Assembly: GCA_943704425.1 (NCBI GenBank)
Contig: CALSCP010000470.1
Coordinates: forward strand, 3,178 to 63,460
Direction of reading: 5' to 3'
Source: Ministeria vibrans ATCC 50519
Taxonomy: Eukaryota; Protista; Filasterea
Length of the DNA stretch: 60,283 nucleotides
Shown: piece after piece, positions 36,870-60,283 of the stretch
Numbering within the stretch: the first letter of the stretch is position 1
Layout: every line of letters begins with the position of its first letter
Notes under the pieces: model-generated
Databases searched by the model: none
What the model was told of the DNA's origin: nothing
The model's input: the letters and a program-made list of their open reading frames with translations, nothing else
Made by a program: the position numbers and the translations under genes

Positions 36870-39749
36870 CTAGCAGGGCACACCCCAATTTGGCCTGGAA
36901 AGCATCCATGCGTCTGCTCCATCGTCAAAAATCCCCGGCTCAGTCGCAATCTTCTCCACACACCAGCTCGACAAATCCGAATTAAACCTATACACACAAA
37001 GACACACAGCACAAAAACACACCAACGCTTGAGAGGATAGACTTAATTTCATGTGCTTACAATCGCGCATCTCTGAACATCTGCGACATTCCCTCCACAT
37101 TGCTACAAAAAAAATTAATAGTGAATTATTATGAATAATTTTCATCGATATTAATTAATAATAATTACCTAACATCCCATCCACTCAAATCTTGGGCATA
37201 GACTGAACTTCGAAACATGTGATCCATCGCAGTGACCTGAAACAAAATGAAACAAAAAAGAGTTACAACGTTGCGGAGTATTGCTTTTTAGGGTACCTTT
37301 GAAGTGTCCCAAGAGAGGAGCGGCTGATTGAACTGCGCGGCAAAGCGAAACATTCCAAACATGCTGATGACACGAGATGTGTTCCACATGTCGAGGGGCT
37401 GATTGAAGGCGAGAGCCTTGTCAAACATCAAGTCCATGATTGTCACACGTGACATGTCAAAGTTAGAAAGGCTCGAATTAAAGCGGTCCGTCTCGGCAAA
37501 CATACCGCCGCTGCTGGCCAGAGATGGTGTGTGCCACTGTGAGAGGTCCGGATTGAAAAGGGCATTGTCGCGGAACATGCTACCGGCATTTTCAAGTTTG
37601 AGCGGTCGCCAGTTTTCAAGTCCGCTCCCATCCCACAGTGTCATGCCGGTAAAGGCATCATTTCCAGACACGAGCGAAGAGACATCCCAGTTCAATGGAT
37701 GCGTAAAAGAGGAACAACCGCCCATCATGAAGGCAACTGTGATCACCTTGGACACCGACCAGTTTGAAATGTTCCCATTGAACTTTTGGCAGGCACGAAA
37801 GGTCTGCGAGAGAGACACCACGTTCGACGTGTTCCACTGATTAAGATCTTGATTGAACTCGTACGCGCCCCAAAACGCCTTCTCCATTTCCGTGACGGCG
37901 CTCACGTCCCAGTGATTCAACGGCTGGTTAAAACTCTCAGCAAAGTTGAAGGTGTACGCAAGCGAAGTGATACGACCCAACTGCCAAGGCAGAGGCGAAT
38001 TAAACTTGGTAGCGCGTTCGAACATCCGTATAACCTCCGTCACGCGCGACGGTTGCCATGCACTAATGTTTCCATTGAAAGCACTCGCCTTGCAAAACAT
38101 ACCCCCCATCAGTTCCACTTGCGATACATTCCAGCGTGAGATGTCCCCCTCAAACAAAGGTGTGTCCGAAAAGACCTAAAAGAAAATTAATACCGAAAAA
38201 ATAAAAATATTTTTCCTTTCTTCTTTTTTCGCCACAATTTTGTTTTACATCTCGCATGTTAGTGACACTAGATGTATCCCAATTGGACAGGTCGGGCATA
38301 TGCAGACTGTGGCACGTCGAAAACATAGAGGAAATGTTCTCGACTTGACTGATGTTCCAACTGGTGAAAGACTCGTTGGTCAGTGCATGGCAATTCTTGA
38401 AGAAGAGTGTCAGTGACTTGGGGAGCACAGAGGGCGCATCAGTTGCGCTAATGCGCATATTGCCGCATCCCATAAAGTGTCCGCCGTCTTCGCCAAACTG
38501 GACGGGTCCCCACGATCCAATCTAAGTAACACAGTTTCATTGAGCTTCATTGTGCGGAAATAAAAGAACAAGAAAATATATAGTTTGCTGCCGTTCATTG
38601 CAGACCCAACGAGTGCGGGGTGAAAAGAGTATAGGGCAAGAGAAAGAAGAAAGTATCATGTATATGGACCAATAAAAGAGAGCTTAAAGAAACAAAATAA
38701 AATGAAAAGAAAAATGCATGAAGTAGTTTCATACTTCATAGTTTAGGCTATATGAGTGAACAAGGAATGGGACAAAAAAGAAGAGAATGCGAATGCAACA
38801 AGGGGTGATTCAGAATAATAAAGTTCTTTAAAACGAAGAAAAAACACATTCGCAAGCACAAATAACAAGTATGGCGTCAACTAATATAACGACACATATC
38901 TCAGAATAACAAAAAAAAACATCACAAGCAACACATCACATCACATCACATCACATCACATCACATCACATCACATCACATCACATCACATCACATCACA
39001 TCACGTCATATTACATCACATCACGTCATATCACATCACACCAAGTCATATCACATCACATCACATCACATCACATCACATCACACCACATCACAAAAAG
39101 AACAAAATAAACACAGGCAACTGCTTCTTACGTCTAAGAGCTTCTCTCGGTCCCCCGAGTTGAAGAATCGGAACCCCTTGATGGTACCCGTAATATATAC
39201 CGTGTAGGATCCACTCGCGGGGTACGTGTGCACCGTCTCAGGCTGGTTGTACGAGGTGATGGTACTTTTCTGTCCGTCGCCCCAGCTCACCTCGAAATCG
39301 TACTCGCCCTCGAAAACCAGCGGCAGCGCAATCTGCTGCGCACCACTCGTGCCGGCCAGGCTTGTGTCCCATGTCGTGACAAAGGCCGCCAGAGTGCAAC
39401 GCTCGCCGTAGAAGGCGTCAGGACACGTGCAGGTAAAGGCACTGAAACTCAAGCGATTGCACACTCCGCCATTTGCGCACGGTGACGAGCGGCAAGGCGA
39501 GCACGAAGGACAGGCGTTCAACTCTGCCTCTAACGCATCGATGGCCGATCGCATCTGGGCGAGGCGTGCCGCGTACGACGAACTGCGAACCGCAACCGCA
39601 GCCGCCCCAAGACGGAGGCCTTCGGCTTGAAACCGCACCGACCCATTCGCTGCCGGCGTCACCACCAGGTCACTGCCGTGGTTCGACACAGTCATACTTT
39701 GGGCCGTAGCCCAGGCCACCAAAGAAAGCAGCACGAGAAGAAGGCGCAT
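36870..39749 (-). CDS. Secreted EGF + PKD-like + BspA/DUF285 surface-repeat protein
   Basis: Signal peptide MRLLLVLLSLVAWATA, EGF CRSSPCANGGVC..CTCPDAFYGERC, then FVTTWDT..ALPL..YDFEVSWGDG..HTY..G.Y.V.ITG. More than 10 FNQxLxxWDVSxVTxMxxMF repeats. Terminal exon FNSDLSSWCV..EP..F..W..PNWG. Confidence 0.85.
38930..39095. repeat. (CACAT)n pentanucleotide microsatellite (intronic)
   Basis: Visible tandem units. Confidence 0.95.
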
Positions 39750-49322: not shown

Positions 49323-50404
49323 CTACTCAATCTTCTCGGTCTTGGACGGCACTTCGTCACCAAAAAAGTACCAAAAGACGGCGAGAAGACCCCAGAGAAG
49401 AGCAGCGATATAGAGCGGCAGGGGCTCCCACAGTTGCATCAAAAGACCGCCAATGGTGGGCGATAGAACGCGCAAAAGAGACTCAAAGGCGCCAATAGAG
49501 CCAAGGTAGGTGCCACGAGCGTCTTCTGGAGCCACTTCGGTAATGCGCGCCATCACTGTGGTGCGCATGACACTGTAGCCGAATGTCATGAGGCCCGTGC
49601 CGCTTACAAAAATGGCGACGCTCATTGAAGAGGCCCGCACGAGACAGCCCAACGACGCACAAGCCAGGGCGAGCGCGGTCGTGTGTGGGCGCGACATCAG
49701 CGTCACCGAGGGCTTTACGAGCGCCTGTGCGACCACTCCAGACACCCCTGAGAAGGACATCAGCAGACCCATTTGGCGCGAGTCAAACTCAAACTTGTTG
49801 AGAACATAGAGCATCATCACGGAGTGCGTCATGAGCTGCGCCCACGCACTCGCCAGCAACACAAACACTGGTGCACGTAACTTTTGTTGGCGTGCAATAT
49901 CGCGCGCCTGTCCAAGCAGCTGAGCCCATGAGAGTGACTGCTTGCTCCGCAGTGCATGACGACTCGGTTCGCGCAGAACGAGTGCGCCGCCCACAAGAAG
50001 ACCAACAAAGAGCAGCGAAGACGCATAGAATGGGTGTGACAGCGACTGCTGTGAGAGTACCCCGCCAATGGCCGGCCCAATGATGAAGCCGGCGCCCGAC
50101 ACCAGGGCCAGTTTAGCAATGGCATCGGTGCGCTGATCGCCCTCCGTCTCGTCCGCAACGAACGCTTGGGATACGGTCATCGTTTGCTACAACCACACAG
50201 CAGGGTCAGCGTTGTCAAGGAGGAGCTGGTTTTTTACCTTGCCAAGGCCAACAAGAACGCGAGCGAGCACCAAGACCTGGACGGGAAGCAGACTTGGCGT
50301 GTGAGCGAACGGAGTGTGTGTCTTTGTGTGAGTGTCTTTGTGTGTGTGTCTTTGTGTGTGTGTCTTTGTGTATAATATGTCTTTTTGGTGTCAGTGTGTG
50401 TGTA

Positions 50405-50435
<31 letters not shown>

Positions 50436-50801
50436 CTTTGTGTCTTTGTGTGTCTTTGTGTCTTTGTGTGTCTTTGTGTCTTTGTGTGTCTTTGTGTCTT
50501 CGTGTGTGAGTGTCTTTGTCCGTGCCTGCACCGACGTGGCAGATCCGATCAGACCGTAGGCAATGGCACACACCGTGAAGGAGGTAAGCAGCACAACCTT
50601 GCGCCCCTTCCGGTCCGAGAGGGCCCCCATGAAGGGCGATCCAATGACTTGTCCGGCCCCGTAAAACGTCGACATCAACCCGACGAGCCATGGCTCGATC
50701 CCGAGCTCTTTGCTCACGGCCGGCAGGACCGGAAGGATAAGACCCACCCCGAGGATGTCCAGGAACACAAATAGGTGGATGAGAGAGAGGCCGAGCGGCA
50801 T
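49323..50801 (-). CDS. MFS transporter, DHA1/TetA-like (MFSD9/SLC22A18-like)
   Basis: FLDILGVGLILPVLP; motif A GALSDRKGRK; motif C GAGFIIGPAIGG; about 12 TM segments; two introns. Confidence 0.88.
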
Positions 50802-50947: not shown

Positions 50948-51176
50948 CACGCCTACGCGGTAGTTTGGGGGATACACCGTAGCCTGGAACCGTGGCCAAC
51001 GGTTTGAGTGGACACTCGTTTGTTTCTGGTTCAGGTTTCAGTTTGATGATCTTCGTTCNNNNNNNNCACGCCTACGCGGTAGTTTGGGGGATACACCGTA
51101 GCCTGGAACCGTGGCCAACGGTTTGAGTGGACACTCGTTTGTTTCTGGTTCAGGTTTCAGTTTGATGATCTTCGTT
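50948..51176. other. 110-bp exact duplication across an N gap (50948-51057 = 51067-51176); probably a contig overlap at the insertion junction
   Basis: Identical sequence on both sides of an 8-N gap. Copy 1 is followed by C and copy 2 by the element TIR. Confidence 0.85.
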
Positions 51177-51304
51177 AAAAACAGTGTGAAAGGGCATTTT
51201 TGGAACTTCGGACTCTTATGAACTGTACTTTATAATGTAGGGCAAAAATATAGGCAGAAAAATTGGTGGTTAGCAGGCCTGTAAAATCAAGTCTGTTATC
51301 CAGT
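51177..51304 (+). repeat. Left terminal inverted repeat
   Basis: First 74 bp match the right TIR perfectly, then imperfectly to about 128 bp. A ~31-bp subterminal unit (GGTTAgCAGGCCTG..AAAxxCAAGTCTGTTA) is repeated at ~51268 and ~51316. Confidence 0.95.
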
Positions 51305-51432
51305 AAAAAGGAGTAGGTTAACAGGCCTGAAAACCCAAGTCTGTTAGTCGAGGCGAAAGCCGAGTGAAAAGTAACGTAATAGTAGGTAAAGAAGGCGGTA
51401 ATAAAAGAGTGTAGCAAGCCACTGAAACCCTG

Positions 51433-51669
51433 CTACTCTTCCTCTGAGTCGGAGTCTGAGTCAGGTACAATGCAGTTGATACAAATGTTATCCCCGCGAT
51501 CGTAGTACAGTGGGTGTTCTTCACAAGTAGTCATATGCAAAACATGTTTGTCTGAGTCATTCTTGTCATTCAGTTTCCAGGTTGATGCCACTGCCCCGGA
51601 TTCATTCCAGAATGCAACAAGAATCGACTCATCTAACTTGGAAGTCACTCTTACGCATTCTGCGGGCAT
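51433..51669 (-). CDS. Small hypothetical protein with a possible CxxH..CxxC motif and acidic tail
   Basis: 78-aa ATG ORF ending CEEHPLYYDRGDNICINCIVPDSDSDSEEE. May be a fragment. Confidence 0.35.
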   Translation of the reverse strand: MPAECVRVTSKLDESILVAFWNESGAVASTWKLNDKNDSDKHVLHMTTCEEHPLYYDRGDNICINCIVPDSDSDSEEE

Positions 51670-51765
51670 TCAGACACTAACTCCAGTGGTGTATATGTGG
51701 ATAATCGCTCAAAAGATGTTACAAATTGATGTTGCAAGTGGGCATGTTAACTTAGTGGAGTCACT

Positions 51766-51792
51766 CTAATTATTATCTAACATGAGAGTATA
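51766..51792 (+). promoter_or_regulatory. Conserved AT-rich upstream motif with TCTA core (copy 1)
   Basis: CTAATTATTATCTAACATGAGAGTATA-ATG; nearly identical to 52708-52737. Confidence 0.65.
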
Positions 51793-52138
51793 ATGGGGTT
51801 TTTCGATTCCGTCAAGAATTTTGCTGGATCAACACCAAGGAACACTGAGATCCTTCGTAAACCAGCAGCTTAACAACGGTCTTCACATGGCTATTGATAA
51901 AGTCTCTGCCGGGAAAGCATCAGACAACAAATTCAAACAATTTCTGCGCAAACAGGTTGCTGATAACAAGAAGCAAATTCTTTCAGCATCTCACACACAG
52001 CTCAACAAGGGACTGAACAAAGGCATTGGTAAGGCTAAGGCAAAGTTGGCCCCGATGCCTGGTGCTAACGGAGGTGGTGTACGTGGTGGAAAGAAGAAGA
52101 AGAAAGGAAAGAAAGGCAAGAAGGGAAACAAGAAGTAA
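51793..52138 (+). pseudogene. Small basic protein (putative viral core/DNA-condensing protein) with a 1-nt frameshift after codon ~10
   Basis: ATG 51793 reads MGFFDSVKNF and is 1 nt out of frame with the ORF LDQHQG..NGGGVRGGKKKKKGKKGKKGNKK*. Could be a true frameshift or an assembly error. Confidence 0.55.
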
Positions 52139-52207
52139 ATAAGCGTCTAATATATGACTATTAAGCGGTACTCAAGGTATTAAGAATATCTTAAGTATAG
52201 TTATACA

Positions 52208-52711
52208 ATGCCAGAATACTTTGATTGCGACTGTGGAAAACAGTACTCTAAGAAGAACAAGAAACAGCATGAAAGATCACTGTTTCACAAGGAAAACACA
52301 CAACAAGTGAAAAATCCTGATATGGTAGAAACAGAACGGTTACAGAACGAGATTTCCGATGCTATTAACTCTGAAAAACCTAAGCATGAAGTAGATACCC
52401 TAATGAGGCAGTATGTAGAACATGCAAGAAGAACTGGTTGTGGAGACAATGAAGAGCTTTCATTTATTGAAACACTCTTAACTAAAGCGGTTAAACCTGT
52501 CAGACATGAAGTAGACACAAACATTGAGCGAATGGTAGGAAATGAGAAACATCTCATTGCAACTGGCACATTAGTCAAGGTTAAGGGAGATGATAAGGGT
52601 CTGTATAAGGTTGTGAGAGAGCGCAAGGGACTGCACTCATTAAAGGATTTCAGAACAGGAAACCCGATCCGGTCACAGCAATATCTAGGTACCGACCTAA
52701 TTCGCTGCTAA
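52208..52711 (+). CDS. C2H2-type zinc-finger protein with C-terminal SH3-like domain (virus-type)
   Basis: N-terminal CDCGKQYSKKNKKQHERSLFH. C-terminal GTLVKVKG..LYKVV..HSLKD..G.PI..Y..DL pattern. Confidence 0.6.
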   Translation: MPEYFDCDCGKQYSKKNKKQHERSLFHKENTQQVKNPDMVETERLQNEISDAINSEKPKHEVDTLMRQYVEHARRTGCGDNEELSFIETLLTKAVKPVRHEVDTNIERMVGNEKHLIATGTLVKVKGDDKGLYKVVRERKGLHSLKDFRTGNPIRSQQYLGTDLIRC

Positions 52712-52737
52712 TTAATATCTAACTAAGAGTATAATAA
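52708..52737 (+). promoter_or_regulatory. Conserved AT-rich upstream motif with TCTA core (copy 2)
   Basis: CTAATTAATATCTAACTAAGAGTATAATAA-ATG. Confidence 0.65.
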
Positions 52738-53475
52738 ATGACTTCCAAAACAGGTGGAATATCCGAGATTATGTTTGGCGATGACTACCGCCGAGAACTG
52801 CAAGTTACGCGTGGGTTCACAGAAGATGGAGGAACTTCGTATGGAGATATCTCTAATGATGCGATCGTGTTCCCTGGCACTGCATTAACTATGTTGTTAG
52901 CGAGCACGGACGCAAATGATACCAGTGCTGGAACAGGATGTGAAGAGGTGCTTGTTAAGGGGCTCAATAGTAACTGGGACAGAGTTGAAGAAACAGTCGT
53001 ACTTAATGGTCTAACAGGCGTAAATATGGTGTCTTCTTTGATCCGTGTTAACTCTGTGGAAGCTGCTGTAGTAGGCTCTAATGGTGGAAATTCTGGACTT
53101 GTTAGAGTGGGTTCTGGTGTTGTGACAGCTGGTGTTCCAGCTATTGTGTACCGAACTATCCCCGTTATTGACTCATCTTTTGTTAACCGTGACATGGACT
53201 GCTTCTTTTCAGTACCTAAATCCTATCATGCTTATGTCCTAAGAGCGCGTGTAAATGGCTCTGATAGTGGTCAAATACAGATCTGGGCACAGACTGATGG
53301 TGCGCCTGCTAAGCTCATGTTTAGCTCAATGTTTGAGAATGATATGGACATGAAATTCGATCACTTCAAAGTTCCTGAGAAAACAGATGTCTGGGTGCTT
53401 GCTAAGTGTCTTTCTAGTGGAGTAACATTACATGCTCAAATGGAGTATTGTCTGAGTTACAGTCCTGGGCAATAA
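52738..53475 (+). CDS. Beta-rich phage/virus-type hypothetical protein (possible virion structural protein)
   Basis: Intact 245-aa intronless ORF with STDANDTSAGTG..VLVKGL..NW..VEETVVLNG..V, FSVP and VPEKTDV motifs. I recognise these from uncharacterised proteins of aquatic dsDNA viruses (from memory, not searched). Confidence 0.6.
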   Translation: MTSKTGGISEIMFGDDYRRELQVTRGFTEDGGTSYGDISNDAIVFPGTALTMLLASTDANDTSAGTGCEEVLVKGLNSNWDRVEETVVLNGLTGVNMVSSLIRVNSVEAAVVGSNGGNSGLVRVGSGVVTAGVPAIVYRTIPVIDSSFVNRDMDCFFSVPKSYHAYVLRARVNGSDSGQIQIWAQTDGAPAKLMFSSMFENDMDMKFDHFKVPEKTDVWVLAKCLSSGVTLHAQMEYCLSYSPGQ

Positions 53476-53560
53476 TTGGTTACATATATTTTATTATGAG
53501 TCTATTTGACTCGTAACAGATCGCCGCTAGTCGCTATCTTAGACTTATATCAGACACGTT

Positions 53561-54429
53561 TTAGTCTGTATCACTGCTTTCGCCATCGTCCGAATTGCCT
53601 TCGGCAACAAGTTCCTCGCCGAAGATTGCGCAGATTTGCTCTTCGGTCATTTTGCCCATCTTGCGGAGGGCTTCCTTAGCAGCTGCGTTCGTCGCCTTCG
53701 AGTTCTTCAGTTCTTCGTTAACAGCCTTATTCGCCTTCTTGTTATCCTTCTCGATACTATCACGCGAATGAGTAACAAAGTGTTTTCCCAACCAAAAAGG
53801 ACCATCATTGAGACCCTAACATAAAGCTATTAGTTATCTATTAGATGTACTTTAGGTGCTTACCTGCATTGTGAGCAGCTTATCGTCACTTCCATCCTGA
53901 TCAACTCGCTCTTGCAATGTTGAATACGCAATGCAACCTCCAATGATGTGTGGGATAACATTTTGCTTGAAGTTATCTCGTGCGCCCTCTTTGAAAGACC
54001 TTCATCATAGTACGTCGTAGTGCGAGTAATCCAAATGTTTCACGTCATCGTATGTCTTCTTGATCTGAAACAGACAGGGTTAATCAGAGTCTATCAGAGT
54101 GTCACTTGTCAGCAACTTACGCGCGTTTTCTTGGCACTTGCAACGCCTTTATCAGTCTTTTGCTTTTTCGTTTTTTTCGGTGTGACAGAGGTATCGCCCC
54201 CTTCTTCTTCTTCTTCGTCTTCGTCTTCATCTCCGTCTACATCAGCTTGCTTGATATCAGCCTTAGTAGGTGGCGTGAAAGTCGGATCTTCCTCGCTCTC
54301 GCGTTTGCGCTTCGCGCTCGTCTTCTTCTTCTTCTGCGACTTCTGTTCTGCTGGGTCGCTCATTACGCTGTCTATGGGTTGATGTAAGGAGGCACTGGGG
54401 TTGTGGATAACTGTTGGGCTTGATGGCAT
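53561..54429 (-). pseudogene. Three-exon gene for a charged, NLS-bearing protein with two adjacent in-frame TGA codons in exon 2
   Basis: Exons 54429-54121, 54064-53864, 53815-53561. Introns GTAAGT..CAG (56 nt) and GTAAGC..TAG (48 nt) are both phase 0 and keep one frame: ..AKKTR|IKKTYDDVKHLDYSHYDVL**RSFKEGARDNFK..LLTMQ|GLNDGPFWLGKHF..DTD*. Confidence 0.65.
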
Positions 54430-54619
54430 GAATAATAATGATTTTTAAGAGTGCAAAAACTGCAAAACTATTGATCAACAACCTATTTGGCGAATGACTG
54501 TTCGCGAACATTCAGATTTTTTTTTATCTTTTTTCTTCGCGAAGAATCGGAAAAATCGTCTTTCTCGTCACCTGACAAAAACACACGCTCTTCATCACTC
54601 AAAGTAAGCCACATACGTA

Positions 54620-55125
54620 TCCAGGTGTTGTGTGTGTCTGTTTGCGGGGGTTGGTGATGGCTGGCGTGCACGGGATCTATGTCCTCGTTTGGTGTCATCA
54701 AAATAAGCGAGAACGCAAACAATTGCGCTTACGTGAAATTGCCGTGGAATTTCTGCCTGCTGTATGGCACATTGGCATGCAGGGGCTGTGTGGGTGCGTT
54801 TGCGGGTGTCGGCGAGGGCTGGCGTGGGCGGGATTGGTGAGAATCTACGGTCTCATGACCTCAAACAAACCATCGAAAAATCGCCCTGCTGTAAAATTGC
54901 ACGCTTGTCAACAGTCACATATGTGTACAGGGGTTGTCTGTGTCCATTTGCGGGGGTCGGCGGGGGTTGGCGGGCGCGGGATCTAAAGTTATAGCGTTTA
55001 GAGAAATACACGAGCGCAATCGCCGGCGAATTTCTACGTGCTTTGACTGCTTTCGAGCACATGGGTGTCTGGGGGTTGGGTGGGTCCGTTTGCGGGGGCC
55101 GGCATGATGGTGTAGGGTGGTATTG
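54620..55125. repeat. Four degenerate ~140-160-bp G-rich tandem units
   Basis: Core TTTGCGGG[G/T]G at 54641, 54799, 54947 and 55089, with shared flanks (GGGG(T/C)TG..TG upstream; GGCG..GG(C/T)TGGCG..CGGGAT downstream). Confidence 0.7.
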
Positions 55126-55223
55126 AATTTTCTCCTTCATTCCCCCTTAGGGATCTTAGGATCTCTCTCCTTGCTTGTTTGAGTCAACGAGAAGGTTCGC
55201 AATCATTAAAAACTTCCACTGTT

Positions 55224-56510
55224 ATGGCACTGAACGTGACGAAGTATATGGCGGGTTTGAATGTCGTTGCTAAAATTTGTCAAACACGCGACAATCACTG
55301 CCACATCGAAGACCAAGACAAAGCACCATTGTATTTAGCGGAGTTGGAAAAGGAAAGCAACTCTTATGCGGTCGTGTTGAATAGCCTGGCGGTATATTTG
55401 GACCAAATTGGTGTTTGCTCTGCAATGGCATTGGAACCGGCGAATGGCAAGCTGAGACTCACCTACACCTCAAACAAATCTAAACAAGCACCACCACAGT
55501 TTCTTGTGGGGATCTGTAACGTGAGCAATGTAGAAATGACCGTCAGGGATGCTGCCCAATGCATATTAGACTCTGTTGAATTGACTCAGCGGCAACGCGA
55601 TTTTGTGGAGATGGTCGCAGACCGTCACATAAATACGGATAGTGGAGAGGACACACGTACTCTGGACTCTGTTTCGGAGATGCTTCTAGATGCTATCTTG
55701 ACCTATTCGACTCTCAACGCAACAAATGAGTTGCTAAAGGGCGATTTTTGTGAATTGTATGTTGAAATCGTGTCACTTTGCCGGGCTACACTTCGTCTCG
55801 GCCTCGAAACTTCGGAACAAGTATTCAACACCATCGGATATGAAATGGCTGTAAACACTGAACATGTGCGCAAGTGCGTATCTGCTCAGCGTACAATGAA
55901 AGGCATCTCCCGTCACCTTGAAACCCTTCATGAGAAGTCTGCATCTCAAAATTCACGCGAACACACCAGTAAATATCGCCGGCATAAAGAGTTATCGGAG
56001 GACTGTTGTCCCGTGCTTCAGCACGCGATGAATCTCAACAAGGAGCTGAGTATCACCGGAATGCGTAAAGTGCGGGACTTGCTCGTAGGTGAAATAGAGT
56101 CTCATCAGAATTTCGTGAACCTGGATCTGTTGAAAGGCCTCATAAACGACGTTGCAGCTGCCGTCAAGAAACTTCAGTATCCTGAGTTTGAAGTCTGCTA
56201 CGTAGACACGGACAACCCGGTCCATTGCGAAATTAAGCTGTTTCAGCACTTTCAGGCAAAATTCAATACGGATCTTTTTAAGAATTGGCCATTGTGTATC
56301 GCACGTTTTGGTGTGTCGAAGCCGTGCTGTCTGAGCTGTACGTTCTGGATGTTCAAAAAAAACTCATTGGACCTCTTCTCGTGTACGTGCAACGAAGTCT
56401 TTCCCAAGTGGTGCTTCCCTGACTCGAAGCTGTCTCTCAGAGCAAGTTACACGCTCCCCTCCTTGGTGTCTGAAGCTAGCGTTTATCCCACCATCAAAGT
56501 TATGGCGTAA
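55224..56510 (+). CDS. OTT_1508-like Zn-dependent nucleic acid/nucleotide deaminase
   Basis: Intronless 428-aa ORF from ATG 55224. N-terminal LNSLAVYL..VCSAMAL..LTYTSN, helical middle, then VHCEIKL (HxE), FGVSKPCCLSC (SKxCCxxC) and VFPKWCFP. This is the motif set of the OTT_1508 deaminase clade. Confidence 0.85.
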   Translation: MALNVTKYMAGLNVVAKICQTRDNHCHIEDQDKAPLYLAELEKESNSYAVVLNSLAVYLDQIGVCSAMALEPANGKLRLTYTSNKSKQAPPQFLVGICNVSNVEMTVRDAAQCILDSVELTQRQRDFVEMVADRHINTDSGEDTRTLDSVSEMLLDAILTYSTLNATNELLKGDFCELYVEIVSLCRATLRLGLETSEQVFNTIGYEMAVNTEHVRKCVSAQRTMKGISRHLETLHEKSASQNSREHTSKYRRHKELSEDCCPVLQHAMNLNKELSITGMRKVRDLLVGEIESHQNFVNLDLLKGLINDVAAAVKKLQYPEFEVCYVDTDNPVHCEIKLFQHFQAKFNTDLFKNWPLCIARFGVSKPCCLSCTFWMFKKNSLDLFSCTCNEVFPKWCFPDSKLSLRASYTLPSLVSEASVYPTIKVMA

Positions 56511-56881
56511 AATTTGGGTGCTAATTGAGAGCAACCACACATACACAAAAAAAATATTAATAAACTCGAAAATAATAATAATAGCATTGTTTAGTATCTG
56601 CCAATATTTCTTCTTGCTCTACTTCGGGCCTTGCATATTCTCTATTATGATCTTTATTCAGCTAACGATTCTGTTTTACCAGGCATTAACATGTCTTTGG
56701 AATTTACTCGATGAGATATCACGAGCCGCGCACTTGTGCTCTTACCCTCCTTACTCGTTTGACCTATTCTCTCGGGCCATCCCCCTGCTCGTGGCTTATC
56801 AGTGAGAGTTATCACTACGTTCTAACCCTACTGCGCTGCCGCCCGATAGGGTCATATATCTGCTCCGCATGATTCCCAATC

Positions 56882-57006
56882 ACTGGCTAACACACTTGAT
56901 TTTACAGGCCCGCTAACTACATTTTTTCTGCCTATTTTTGCCCTACATTATAAAGTACAGTTCATAAGAGTCCGAAGTTCCAAAAATGCCCTTTCACACT
57001 GTTTTT
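56882..57006 (-). repeat. Right terminal inverted repeat
   Basis: Reverse complement of 51177-51304. Confidence 0.95.
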
Positions 57007-57379
57007 TTCGTTCACAACAGGTGGGATCCGCTTAGTGGAAGGGCGCGTTGGAATTGCTTACGATCACGCGCCGGTTGCATCGCGCAAACTCCAAAACGAA
57101 TAAAAGAACGTTTTGTAGATCAGACAACTGAATAGAGTAATATTTAACCTAACACCTCTCGGTTGGCCCTTCCGCTCCCTATTTTTGGGTACTATGCTGT
57201 GGGATGTCGATCGATGAATTGGCAACTGCTCGAATGGAGGGAGGGCTATGACGCAGTAGAACATCGCCTCTCTGATTGTGTACTAAACGTGTACTAAACT
57301 TCTCACAGACGGAAAGGGAAGACGGAAAAGGAGGAAAAGAGAAATCAAAAAGGACATATGGATGCACGAGGGTGAAGCA

Positions 57380-60283
57380 ACTACTTTGGATGGTTAGATG
57401 ATCTTGTACAATGAAGCTTTTATCCCAGCCTACGCTCGAAAAGATGCAGTGGCGGCTGCGAGACAGTGCCTGGAGGCGGCGTATGAGCATTACAGGGAGT
57501 GGCAGCGGCGTCAGTAGGCTGCTGCCTGATCCTGGTGTTTGTTTTTATTTTATTTTTCCCATGTTACCTTTTTCTTTCTTTTCTTTCTTTCTCTCCTTTT
57601 CCCCTTTTTGCATTTTCCTTCTTCCCTTTTTCTTCTCCTTTTTCATGCGAGATGCTTAGTTTAAAATCAGGAGGCGTTTTCAGCTGCTGAGCGGTTTACT
57701 TGCTTGGGTGAATGCTTTGCATGCAAGTCTCTCGGAATGTCCGCTTCGGCCCATGCGGGGGTGAAGCAGCCGCTTCGGATGGCTAGATTGTCTTGTACAA
57801 TGAAGCTTTTGCCCTAGGACTTCCAAAAAAAAACAATGAAGCTTTTGCCCGAGAGGGACTTCCAAAAAAACAAGAGACTGGCGGCTCGCGCGTGTCACTC
57901 GGCGGGAAATCCCTCTTAAGCGCCCTTCACCGCCTCTTTAATCGTCTTCTTCAGCCTCTTTCGCAGACCTCTCGGGCAAAACTGCGTGACTTCCGTCCCA
58001 CGGTAGCCCGCGGTCAGTCGCACTGCCGATTGAGCACTGATTGTCCTCACCAGTTCGTCTCTGTCCATCTCGTCCATGCGCCAACTTTCAATTTCCCCTA
58101 CTACCCGCTTCAAGACTCTTTCAGCACAGGATTCATCCTCACCGTCAAGTCCCTTACAGCTAAGTAGGTACCCTGTCGTCTCCACCCAGGTCCTCATCGC
58201 ATCTCGTGCACAATTTGCCGGTGTCGTCCTCTGCATCTGTCGTCGAGCCATAGCCCCTCCTCATGTTCACTTCCTTGCCCTTGAGTAGTCCCGAAAACGT
58301 GGGACCACGCCTCTTTTTTTTTTTTGGAAGTCCTGGGGCAAAAGCTTCACTTTTCAACTAGGGGGTGCGCAGAGTAGGTGACCTGATAGATCATGCCAGG
58401 ATTTACAGGAAGGTGAAATCTCTCTCTCTCTCTCTCTTACACTCTCACACCCCTCACACTCTCTCAGTTGTTGTCGTTGGTCGGAGCATCATTGCCCGCC
58501 TTCCCATTCTTTTTGACATGGTTCTGGAATGTCCGGAATGTCCACTTCGGCTCATACGGGAGTAAAGCAGCCGCTTCGGATGGCTAGATTGTCTTGTGCA
58601 ATGAAGCTTTTGCCCTAGAACTTCCAAAAAAAAAAGGTTCTAGTACCACTCTTGAGCGTCCTTTACCGCCTCCTTCGCCGTTTTCTTCAGCCTATTTTGC
58701 AGACCCCTCCCTCGGACACAGCGTTTTGACTCCCAGCCGGTGGTCAGTCTCACTGCCGATTGAGCACTGATTGCCATCACCAGTTCGTCTCTGTCCATCT
58801 CGTCCATATTTTATTCTCTCTATTTGTCTTTCTCTACTGTCTTCTCTCACTCGTTGGACACATTCCAAAAAAGAGCAGTCCGCCATTCCCAAGAAAAAAA
58901 TGCAGTTAAGCTGTTCACGTACATCAAATTTGTCCGTTTTCGCGCTACATTGATTAAATTAAAATAATGATTGTGGTATTTCGCCTGATGTTGTGTACTG
59001 TGTACATACTACCCCTGTAATTGTACATATCGCGAAATCAATTACACAGAATAAGTGTGACGTATAATTAAGCTGTGTTTAGTTATCGACATGATGTCGA
59101 CAGATTCAGCCCCCCTCCCTGGCCTCACTGTGACGGGCCCGACCCCACATTCTTCTGTTGCATCGGCATACTTTATAAAACGTCCGGTTTTTAATAAAAA
59201 TATTTAAAAATATTGTTGGCTTGTGTCACCTTATTACAAAAGCCGTCTCAAAAACTTAATCGTCCCGCTTTTGATTCCTGATTTTTATTTTTATTTCGAT
59301 TTTTTTTTGGGGACTTAGAAAGCTGCTACGCTTCCCCCCGATTGCTGACGCGCAAAAGATTGCAAGGAATGCGTTTGCAAGACGTGCGCTCTCCTTTTTA
59401 CCTGGAATCTCTATAAACTTCACCCAGAGGGAATCTCTATAAACTTCACCAGAGGGAATCTCCTTTTTACCGTGCGGCGATGCATGAGTATGCTCCTACT
59501 TCCAGTTAGCAGTCCTTTTCATTCTTTCGAGCCCTGAGAGCGGGGTTTCGAGGCTTGAAGTTGAGGGGCTCCCGCCGGCGTGCGGTAGTGCAGGGAGAGC
59601 GAGGCGGGGGTACCGACCCTCTTCTTTCGGGAAGAAAAACGACATCGTGTACGTCGGGGCGGCGAGTCCCTGCCGAAAGGACCCCAGTAGGGTATGTCTG
59701 TCGCTGGACGGATTGCCCTAGTTGCGATGAAGGGAGTGGACACCGTCGCAGCTTTGGGGGCGACTTGGAGAGACTTCTTGAGAGGTTTTTCTGATAAGGG
59801 TTTTACGACCCGAGGAAGTGCGAACGAGATGGGCGGCAGGAATGTCGCCGATGACAGTGTCGATGGGCACGTCGTGAGCGAAGAGACGGGGCTCCTAGAG
59901 CTCCGGAAAAGCGATCTGCGTTTTTTCACGAAGAAAATTCGCGAAGAGTCCGTGAAGAGTCCGTGAGAAAGTTGCGGAGCTCGTCGTCTGCGGGCGGCGG
60001 GAAGAGTGGCGAGTGGCGTACTACTAGTGTGCTAGTGATGGAGATGAGACTTGCGAAGGAGAGAAGGGGGACGGAGACGTTCCGAAAGGAGAGAAGGAAG
60101 ATCCAGTTCGCACTTACTCCATTTACCACCTGTTCTTTCCCATATTTATCTTCCCTCCGCCAATTACCTGTCCCACTTTATCCTTTCCTTTTCACGTGCG
60201 TGAATTTTTAGTTAAAATCAGGAGGCGTCTCCAGCTGCGGCTGTTCACTTGCTTGGGTGAACGGCTCTGTATGCAAGTCTCTC
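57380..60283. repeat. Degenerate interspersed repeat region (direct and inverted copies)
   Basis: GGATGG(C/T)TAGAT..TCTTGT(A/G)CAATGAAGCTTTT at ~57388, ~57777 and ~58578. 57915-58078 resembles 58655-58808. 57661-57733 resembles 60212-60283. An inverted copy of TGAAGCTTTTGCCC.AGGACTTCCAAAAA lies at ~58315-58349. A 25-26-bp tandem lies at 59404-59461. Confidence 0.8.

Follow-up and report, generated by a model that had tools for sequence, protein, structure and literature searches.

A 5.8-kb virus-like element of Ministeria vibrans with a transcribed OTT_1508-like deaminase gene beside a spliced, stop-interrupted neighbour

We analysed a 60,283-nt stretch of the genome of the filasterean Ministeria vibrans ATCC 50519 (contig CALSCP010000470.1, positions 3,178 to 63,460 of the forward strand), hereafter the window. 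Towards its right end lies an element of 5.83 kb (51177-57006) with terminal inverted repeats (TIRs) and a 6-bp target-site duplication (TSD) at both ends. The element contains six genes: four in a left module, one of which is frameshifted, one spliced gene of three exons and one deaminase gene. Its features, in coordinates of the window and with open reading frames abbreviated as ORFs, are as follows.

51171..51176: left TSD copy, TTCGTT, directly outside the left TIR; present as a single copy at the empty site
51177..51304, plus strand: left TIR, first 74 bp perfect
51306..51441, plus strand: left inner terminal segment, common to other elements in the culture runs and two metagenomes; contains a 31-nt repeat of the inner end of the TIR
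51433..51669, minus strand: ORF0, 78 aa, Cys/His-containing with an acidic tail; no family match and no RNA contig
51774..51792 (before ORF1), 52187-52199 (before ORF2) and 52716-52733 (before ORF3), plus strand: AT-rich motif TATCTWA...AGTATA
51793..52138, plus strand: ORF1, frameshifted near its 5' end; an amphipathic start of 25 aa, followed by a second frame that stays open up to a Gly/Lys-rich tail
52208..52711, plus strand: ORF2, 167 aa, N-terminal C2H2-type zinc finger
52738..53475, plus strand: ORF3, 245 aa, phrog_8198; single jelly-roll with an insertion
53463..54481, minus strand: three-exon gene (exons 54481-54121, 54064-53863 and 53814-53463), spliced and polyadenylated
54007-54002, minus strand: tandem in-frame TGA-TGA, codons 123-124, the sole lesion of the three-exon gene
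54596..55103, plus strand: four G-rich units spaced 142-158 bp apart, between the divergent genes and mostly in the deaminase leader
55224..56510, plus strand: OTT_1508-like deaminase, 428 aa; HCE (334), GVSKP (363), CLSC (369)
56712..56853, plus strand: right inner terminal segment, common to other elements in the culture runs
56882..57006, minus strand: right TIR
57007..57012: right TSD copy, TTCGTT, directly outside the right TIR

Parts of the element are contained in 15 of 17 public sequencing runs. Six of the 17 were compared at contig level: two culture DNA runs from separate studies (X1 and X2), two marine metagenomes (X13 and X14) and two culture RNA runs. The TIR pair aligns over 128 columns at 93.75% identity, and the outer 74 bp are perfect. 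Both the TIR length (at least 100 bp) and the duplication (5-6 bp, here TTCGTT twice) are as expected for Polintons/Mavericks, Polinton-like viruses (PLVs) and virophages with an rve-type integrase. An alternative duplication of 4-5 bp needs unequal T-runs at the element ends. The empty site, with a single TTCGTT ahead of right-flank sequence, appears as a loose contig end in three of four runs (X1, X13 and X14), and residual depth points to it in X2. An empty site with a single hexamer indicates that TTCGTT is a genuine target duplication.

A single contig of 5404 nt covers the interior of the element (51394-56797) without differences in X1 and X2, which rules out a misassembly. The interior depth, a contig depth and not a copy number, is 0.53-0.57 of that of both flanks in these runs, and the depths of filled and empty junctions are about 21:31 in X1 and 176:141 in X2. 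These values agree with a filled allele beside an empty one or with a mixed culture. The empty site marks the element as a true insertion, likely on one allele. An earlier sequence-only reading of this locus had described a 5.8-kb TIR element with a 6-bp TSD, which the alignment and the empty site confirm. Its worry that the two TIRs might come from different loci falls away with the single interior contig.

Two further observations concern the insertion site. A 110-bp exact duplication spans an 8-N gap just left of the element (50948-51066), and its first copy ends like the empty site; the two alleles have probably left this trace in the assembly. Of the eight bases that follow the target hexamer (57013-57020), six match the corresponding positions of the element start (51177-51184), by chance or through a target preference.

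The element translations that we scanned against Pfam, PHROG and NCBIfam gave no match to rve, a tyrosine recombinase, a protein-primed DNA polymerase B (pPolB) or an A32 ATPase. The sole capsid match was to Capsid_NCLDV at an E-value of 0.03, far below the cut-off, in an opposite-strand frame over ORF0. The integrase, replicase, A32 ATPase and double jelly-roll capsid that mark a complete element were therefore not found. The coding space is filled by the six other genes, and only the deaminase and the interrupted spliced gene exceed 245 aa. An Rfam search returned no match at E ≤ 1, and hence no selenocysteine insertion sequence and no ribozyme family. The left module (51433-53482) has a GC content of 0.42 and an observed/expected CpG ratio of 0.60. 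The right module (53483-56711) has values of 0.46 and 1.05, and the CpG ratios of four host stretches are 0.95-1.15. The sequence-only reading had seen no integrase, recombinase, pPolB, packaging ATPase or major capsid protein, a virus-type left module and a host-type right module with an OTT_1508-like deaminase. The profile scans, with nothing above cut-off for the hallmark genes, agree with the first point. Both modules were borne out as well, the right one by transcription and by a deaminase match above cut-off.

That match is to PF14441, with 29.1 bits against a cut-off of 27 (E = 9.9e-07). The HxE, GxxK and CxxC motifs are all intact, as expected of a family member; GxxK is given as a motif of this clade in the consulted part of PMC3239186. 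In an ESM search, 24 of 30 matches fell into OTT_1508 clusters; fungal-dominated clusters scored 0.92-0.93, and the top three consisted mostly of fungal proteins of similar length. Sequence relatives were found neither among 3542 candidates nor among 1.84 billion representatives, there was no relative in the PDB, and PADLOC gave no match below E 0.029. One stretch of a viral contig passed tblastn against the deaminase; it returned no locus and was not used. A single-sequence structure model was unusable, with a predicted local distance difference test (pLDDT) score of 35.7. The gene is covered by a polyadenylated RNA contig (54623-56583). Its leader contains nine upstream ATGs, and the G-rich units include three quadruplex-like runs. 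The G-rich units and upstream ATGs could impose stress-dependent translation. Related G-rich units occur at other genomic loci in X1 and X2.

The strongest feature of the element, which the sequence-only reading missed, is the neighbour of the deaminase: it is spliced and expressed, and it carries two adjacent in-frame stops. Six ORFs or pseudo-ORFs had been counted in the element. The number of genes stands at six, while what looks like pseudo-ORFs in the DNA is one spliced, polyadenylated gene of three exons. Its frame (54429-53561) comprises 254 codons and is divided by two GT-AG introns of 56 and 48 nt. From the first Met, 122 open codons lead to TGA-TGA, after which a further 130 open codons run across intron 2. 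Such an open length after the stops was seen in one of 20,000 shuffles, and the codon-position bias is equal on both sides. Both RNA runs hold two divergent polyadenylated transcripts, those of the deaminase and the three-exon gene, and transcription of this cargo is seen in runs of 2011 and 2025. The TGA-TGA is identical in the contigs of four out of four runs (two DNA, two RNA), and an assembly error was rejected because all covering runs give identical contigs. Recoding of TGA by the host is unsupported: one host frame contains 15 Trp in 1724 codons and no TGA.

Basic runs and an acidic run in the predicted product suggest that the protein is likely nuclear. The three-exon gene had no Pfam match and no known family, and no zinc-finger pattern was found in its three exons. 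A search with exons 2-3 (X at the stops) gave 20 candidates, none of which was a homologue. The polyadenylated 3' end of its transcript reaches 53463 and overlaps the last codons of the convergent ORF3 (53440-53475).

In the left module, ORF3 matches phrog_8198 (E = 4.9e-08) and 51 of 638 candidate proteins, the latter at 26-48% identity. Its structure model has a pLDDT of 88, and uncharacterised phage proteins match it at template modelling (TM) scores of 0.76-0.83. The jelly-roll core gave a best Z of 9.9 (root-mean-square deviation 2.9, 102 residues). Foldseek against the PDB reached a TM of 0.25 at best, and a search with ORF3 alone confirmed none of four candidate stretches. Among 80 related viral loci two were annotated, and in each of them the family lies close to phage head, tail or virion genes; the remaining proteins of the element had no match at the 80 loci. 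ORF3 likely has a role at the virion surface.

ORF1 possibly encodes a DNA-binding core protein. The break in its frame is present in both DNA runs (X1 and X2), and an assembly error as its cause was rejected, the contigs being identical in all covering runs. No relative of ORF1 was found among 600 candidates. Its start may resemble adenovirus protein VI; a literature search on this likeness gave adenovirus papers only. For ORF2, none of five candidate stretches in viral contigs was confirmed and no phage match was found, and an ESM search gave matches at 0.78 only, all to short hypothetical proteins.

The TATCTWA...AGTATA motif occurs three times in the window, only before ORF1-3. It was absent from 100 shuffles, a generous control in that the pattern was picked after seeing the sites. 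The motif resembles giant-virus late promoters and contains or approaches the TCTA motif, which is known from late genes of mavirus and Cafeteria roenbergensis virus (CroV) according to the consulted part of PMC8547959. Neither RNA run has contigs from the left module, save a 25-letter low-complexity match in X6. This hints only weakly at silence.

We next consider the relatives of the element. In X2, the terminal 1.2 kb of a 19,927-nt contig matches ORF2-ORF3 at 80-89%. The matches comprise 236 of 265 letters in ORF2 (about 89%, part of the gene) and 232 of 274 and 105 of 132 letters in ORF3 (80-85%). Codon changes relative to this contig were counted over the listed differences (40 of 80, 37 of them in ORF2 or ORF3), and nine of the 12 codons changed in ORF3 among these are silent. 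Other contigs match 51306-51425 and 56736-56853, with the two segments joined to each other. Their depth is about twice that of the 19.9-kb contig (359-384 versus 216 in X2, 34-35 versus 14-18 in X1), as two identical ends give. This suggests an element of 20-21 kb with longer identical ends. The element therefore appears to have a longer relative with common internal genes and terminal sequence, the terminal link to the 19.9-kb contig being drawn from depth.

Other contigs also carry 51338-51441, so this is not the only such family: X1 and X2 contain at least two further contig families with this segment and X13 and X14 several variants, which suggests several related long-TIR elements. In X13 a diverged outer TIR stands at another flank, and the inner segment of the relative is present in X14; the family thus exists in the wild. 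The outer TIR itself forms a 74-nt contig at 1.9-2.0 times the interior depth, joined in X1 and X2, among the pieces listed and at 88% identity or above, only to the two flanks of this element. In viral contigs, neither a 20-mer of the TIR nor a 22-mer of the inner terminal segment had a match. The 20-mer had 11 matches in metagenome contigs, which we rejected as chance since all 11 end with the 20-mer.

Taken together, the element is probably a reduced member of a 20-kb Polinton-like or virophage-like family, with a transcribed two-gene cargo by its right end. A retroviral-type (rve) integrase supplied in trans would have made the 6-bp duplication, as rve integrases typically give 6-bp TSDs (PMC12220804, consulted in part). 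The left genes may be late genes waiting for a helper virus, and the cargo would act in virus-host conflict. Several results weigh against this. Size, TIRs, TSD and motifs are the basis of the family assignment, and the relative is known by its matched terminal 1.2 kb. The sequence-only reading had suggested looking for a longer partner with the same TIR and for further copies. There is a longer relative, of 19,927 nt, in the same organism, but a partner with the same outer TIR at 88% identity or above was not found in X1 and X2 among the matches listed. No other copy of the small element was seen in the culture contigs at that identity, and hence no set of copies with different TSDs. The relatives found for ORF3 are phage-type and not PLV genes. 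ORF1 is frameshifted and hence shows some decay, and in ORF2 15 of the 21 codons changed among the listed differences are replacements and six are silent.

That this is a miniature element mobilised in trans, as had been proposed, agrees with its lack of mobility genes; mobilisation itself is inferred, and deletion after insertion is its main rival. Here a full-length, cargo-bearing element would have inserted and lost about 15-18 kb internally, the stops would be ordinary decay, and nothing would have been mobilised in trans. The single copy, the lack of another element with the same outer TIR, the ORF1 frameshift and the unedited RNA all suit such a dead remnant, and truncated, TIR-flanked endogenous mavirus-like elements (EMALEs) are known as decay products (PMC8547959, in part). 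However, the 74-bp perfect TIR, exact TSD and surviving empty allele suggest a young insertion, and a related outer TIR lies at a different flank in X13. Decay is unlikely to leave two adjacent stops as the only damage in 254 codons and to spare both introns, the right module lacks the CpG loss that would favour CGA-to-TGA changes, and the cargo was still transcribed in 2011 and 2025. We consider a dead remnant unlikely.

Two other origins are more distant. A non-autonomous cut-and-paste transposon, similar to Pack-type Mutator-like elements (Pack-MULEs), could have captured a viral fragment and two host genes. TIRs without a transposase, two modules differing in composition and G-rich units common to other genomic loci are compatible with this. 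Conversely, both inner terminal segments come from one element family and the 19.9-kb contig carries ORF2-ORF3 at one end; the ends and the viral genes therefore seem to have a common origin. Among the contigs compared, neither cargo gene has a host paralogue at 80% identity or more, as judged by flat depth, and the 6-bp TSD differs from the usual length for MULEs. Such a capture is very improbable. Alternatively, a linear giant-virus satellite of the transpoviron type, not derived from a PLV or virophage, might have integrated by accident. Its size, six genes, zinc-finger gene and short TIRs match a described transpoviron, and the late-promoter-like motifs are in keeping with it. Yet the helicase gene of all transpovirons (PMC8877843, in part) is absent from the element translations scanned, and an integrating element accounts better for cargo that is spliced and polyadenylated and for the 19.9-kb relative in the same organism. 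We regard this origin as very improbable.

The layout of the cargo suggests a mechanism. As in the fungal OLD-ZAO pairs, the deaminase adjoins a gene that is interrupted by a premature in-frame stop and whose downstream frame is intact. With A-to-I editing at its third base, UGA becomes a Trp codon. Upon infection, both UGA codons in the mRNA of the divergent neighbour would be edited to UGG by the deaminase, and this would release a full-length nuclear effector. If editing occurs, the layout would work like a fungal antiviral RNA-editing switch. By our judgement, an OLD-type switch as the mechanism of the cargo is possible but doubtful. The stops are unedited in the contigs of both RNA runs although the deaminase is transcribed, where contigs drop rare variants. 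The base at -1 of the edited A is G, which accounts for about 5% of Fusarium editing sites (PMC4817773, in part), and the stop is UGA and not the UAG of OLD-ZAO. No stable hairpin loop was predicted, the first A being mostly paired in four of five folding windows. The neighbour is not a zinc-finger factor as in OLD-ZAO, and it has no homologue that would show Trp-Trp at codons 123-124. As an alternative, a cytidine deaminase may have damaged its own neighbour; cytosine deamination has been proposed for this deaminase clade (PMC3239186, in part).

The genomic surroundings are those of an ordinary eukaryote, and compact contig sets together with occurrence in marine metagenomes point to a protist from the sea. 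Neighbouring genes in the window contain introns and microsatellites and encode Dna2, kelch, ankyrin, DUF285 and major facilitator superfamily (MFS) proteins. The insertion lies a few hundred bases upstream of the MFS transporter gene (49323-50801, minus strand) and could alter its expression. A host gene at 37288-38175 contains four stretches of DUF285, a family of repeats that is known best from Mycoplasma. The right flank from 57367 to the window end at 60283 is a patchwork of 55-166 bp repeats (80-93%, direct and inverted) with three ORFs without Pfam match, and is possibly another repeat element.

Endogenous virophages and PLVs are thought to protect protists by parasitising giant viruses. 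The locus is a concrete example: its viral core is gone, and what it expresses is a small cargo. Defence cargo on virophages and PLVs has been proposed from gene content (10.64898/2026.10.13.758929, in part). Among eukaryotes, OLD-type editing is treated as fungal (PMC13327615, in part). If the stops are edited, this type of mRNA editing would not be confined to fungi and would travel on mobile elements. We therefore put forward only tentatively, as an idea that may well prove wrong, that a virus-derived protist satellite spreads a self-contained editing switch, which would act during giant-virus infection. It would be an antiviral circuit of the OLD type that lies outside fungi and has a new codon specificity, and it would travel as cargo in the way that phage satellites carry defence systems. 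The filled and empty alleles in one species provide a natural control.

Finally, we compared the element with known systems, each described here from the consulted part of its source. The sequence-only reading knew of no described parallel to this organisation; precedents do exist, in EMALEs (PMC8547959) and nematode Mavericks (10.1101/2022.07.12.499685). Truncated EMALEs of Cafeteria burkhardae are likewise TIR-flanked and have a lower GC content than their host. EMALEs can be as short as 5.5 kb, three of 33 are truncated yet keep their TIRs, EMALE08 lacks morphogenesis genes, and type 4 has an AT-rich TCTA motif upstream of its genes (PMC8547959). Every EMALE type encodes an integrase or recombinase, however, none has introns, and no deaminase cargo is mentioned in that part of the source, whereas no mavirus-type gene was detected in our element. 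Nematode Mavericks have a TIR-adjacent region of 2-5 kb with higher GC content and intron-containing genes, and their viral genes are untranscribed. Their cargo consists of proteases and kinases, and they are largely complete, with integrase and pPolB, in animal hosts and with no editing enzyme (10.1101/2022.07.12.499685). Transpovirons share the size of 6-7 kb, six ORFs, TIRs and a zinc-finger gene, one described example having 6365 bp, 6 ORFs and 77-nt TIRs (PMC8877843). Unlike them, the M. vibrans element has no helicase, is integrated in a chromosome with a 6-bp TSD and carries spliced cargo.

For the cargo, the closest match is the fungal OLD-ZAO system, where an OTT_1508-like deaminase also lies beside a stop-interrupted gene; the catalytic HxE...CxxC is intact here too (PMC12754623). 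In fungi, infection leads OLD deaminases to edit the premature stop in the adjacent gene, and they favour U at -1 and hairpin loops. OLD-ZAO has a UAG stop in a hairpin loop with U at -1, a zinc-finger target and induction by virus (PMC12754623). Here, in contrast, the stops are two UGA codons in tandem, the neighbour is an orphan gene, both genes show expression in culture and the pair lies inside a mobile element. PUK1 of Fusarium graminearum also has two tandem premature stops in an intact frame, both of which are edited to Trp. These are UAG-UAG, are edited in sexual development and have no neighbouring deaminase reported in that part of the source (PMC4817773); the editing is carried out by Tad2-Tad3-Ame1 (PMC12754623).

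Among the literature matches listed, from a search with most subscription journals and supplements outside its scope, none linked OTT_1508 deaminases to PLVs, virophages or transposons of protists; such cargo could be listed in the gene tables of PLV surveys. Virophage remnants that are short and flanked by TIRs have already been described, as has Maverick cargo next to a TIR, whereas the literature searched yielded no editing cassette on a vehicle of this kind. The cargo is laid out like OLD-ZAO yet lacks two features that define that system. As a vehicle, the element behaves like truncated EMALEs and cargo-bearing Mavericks, and is a complete member of neither.

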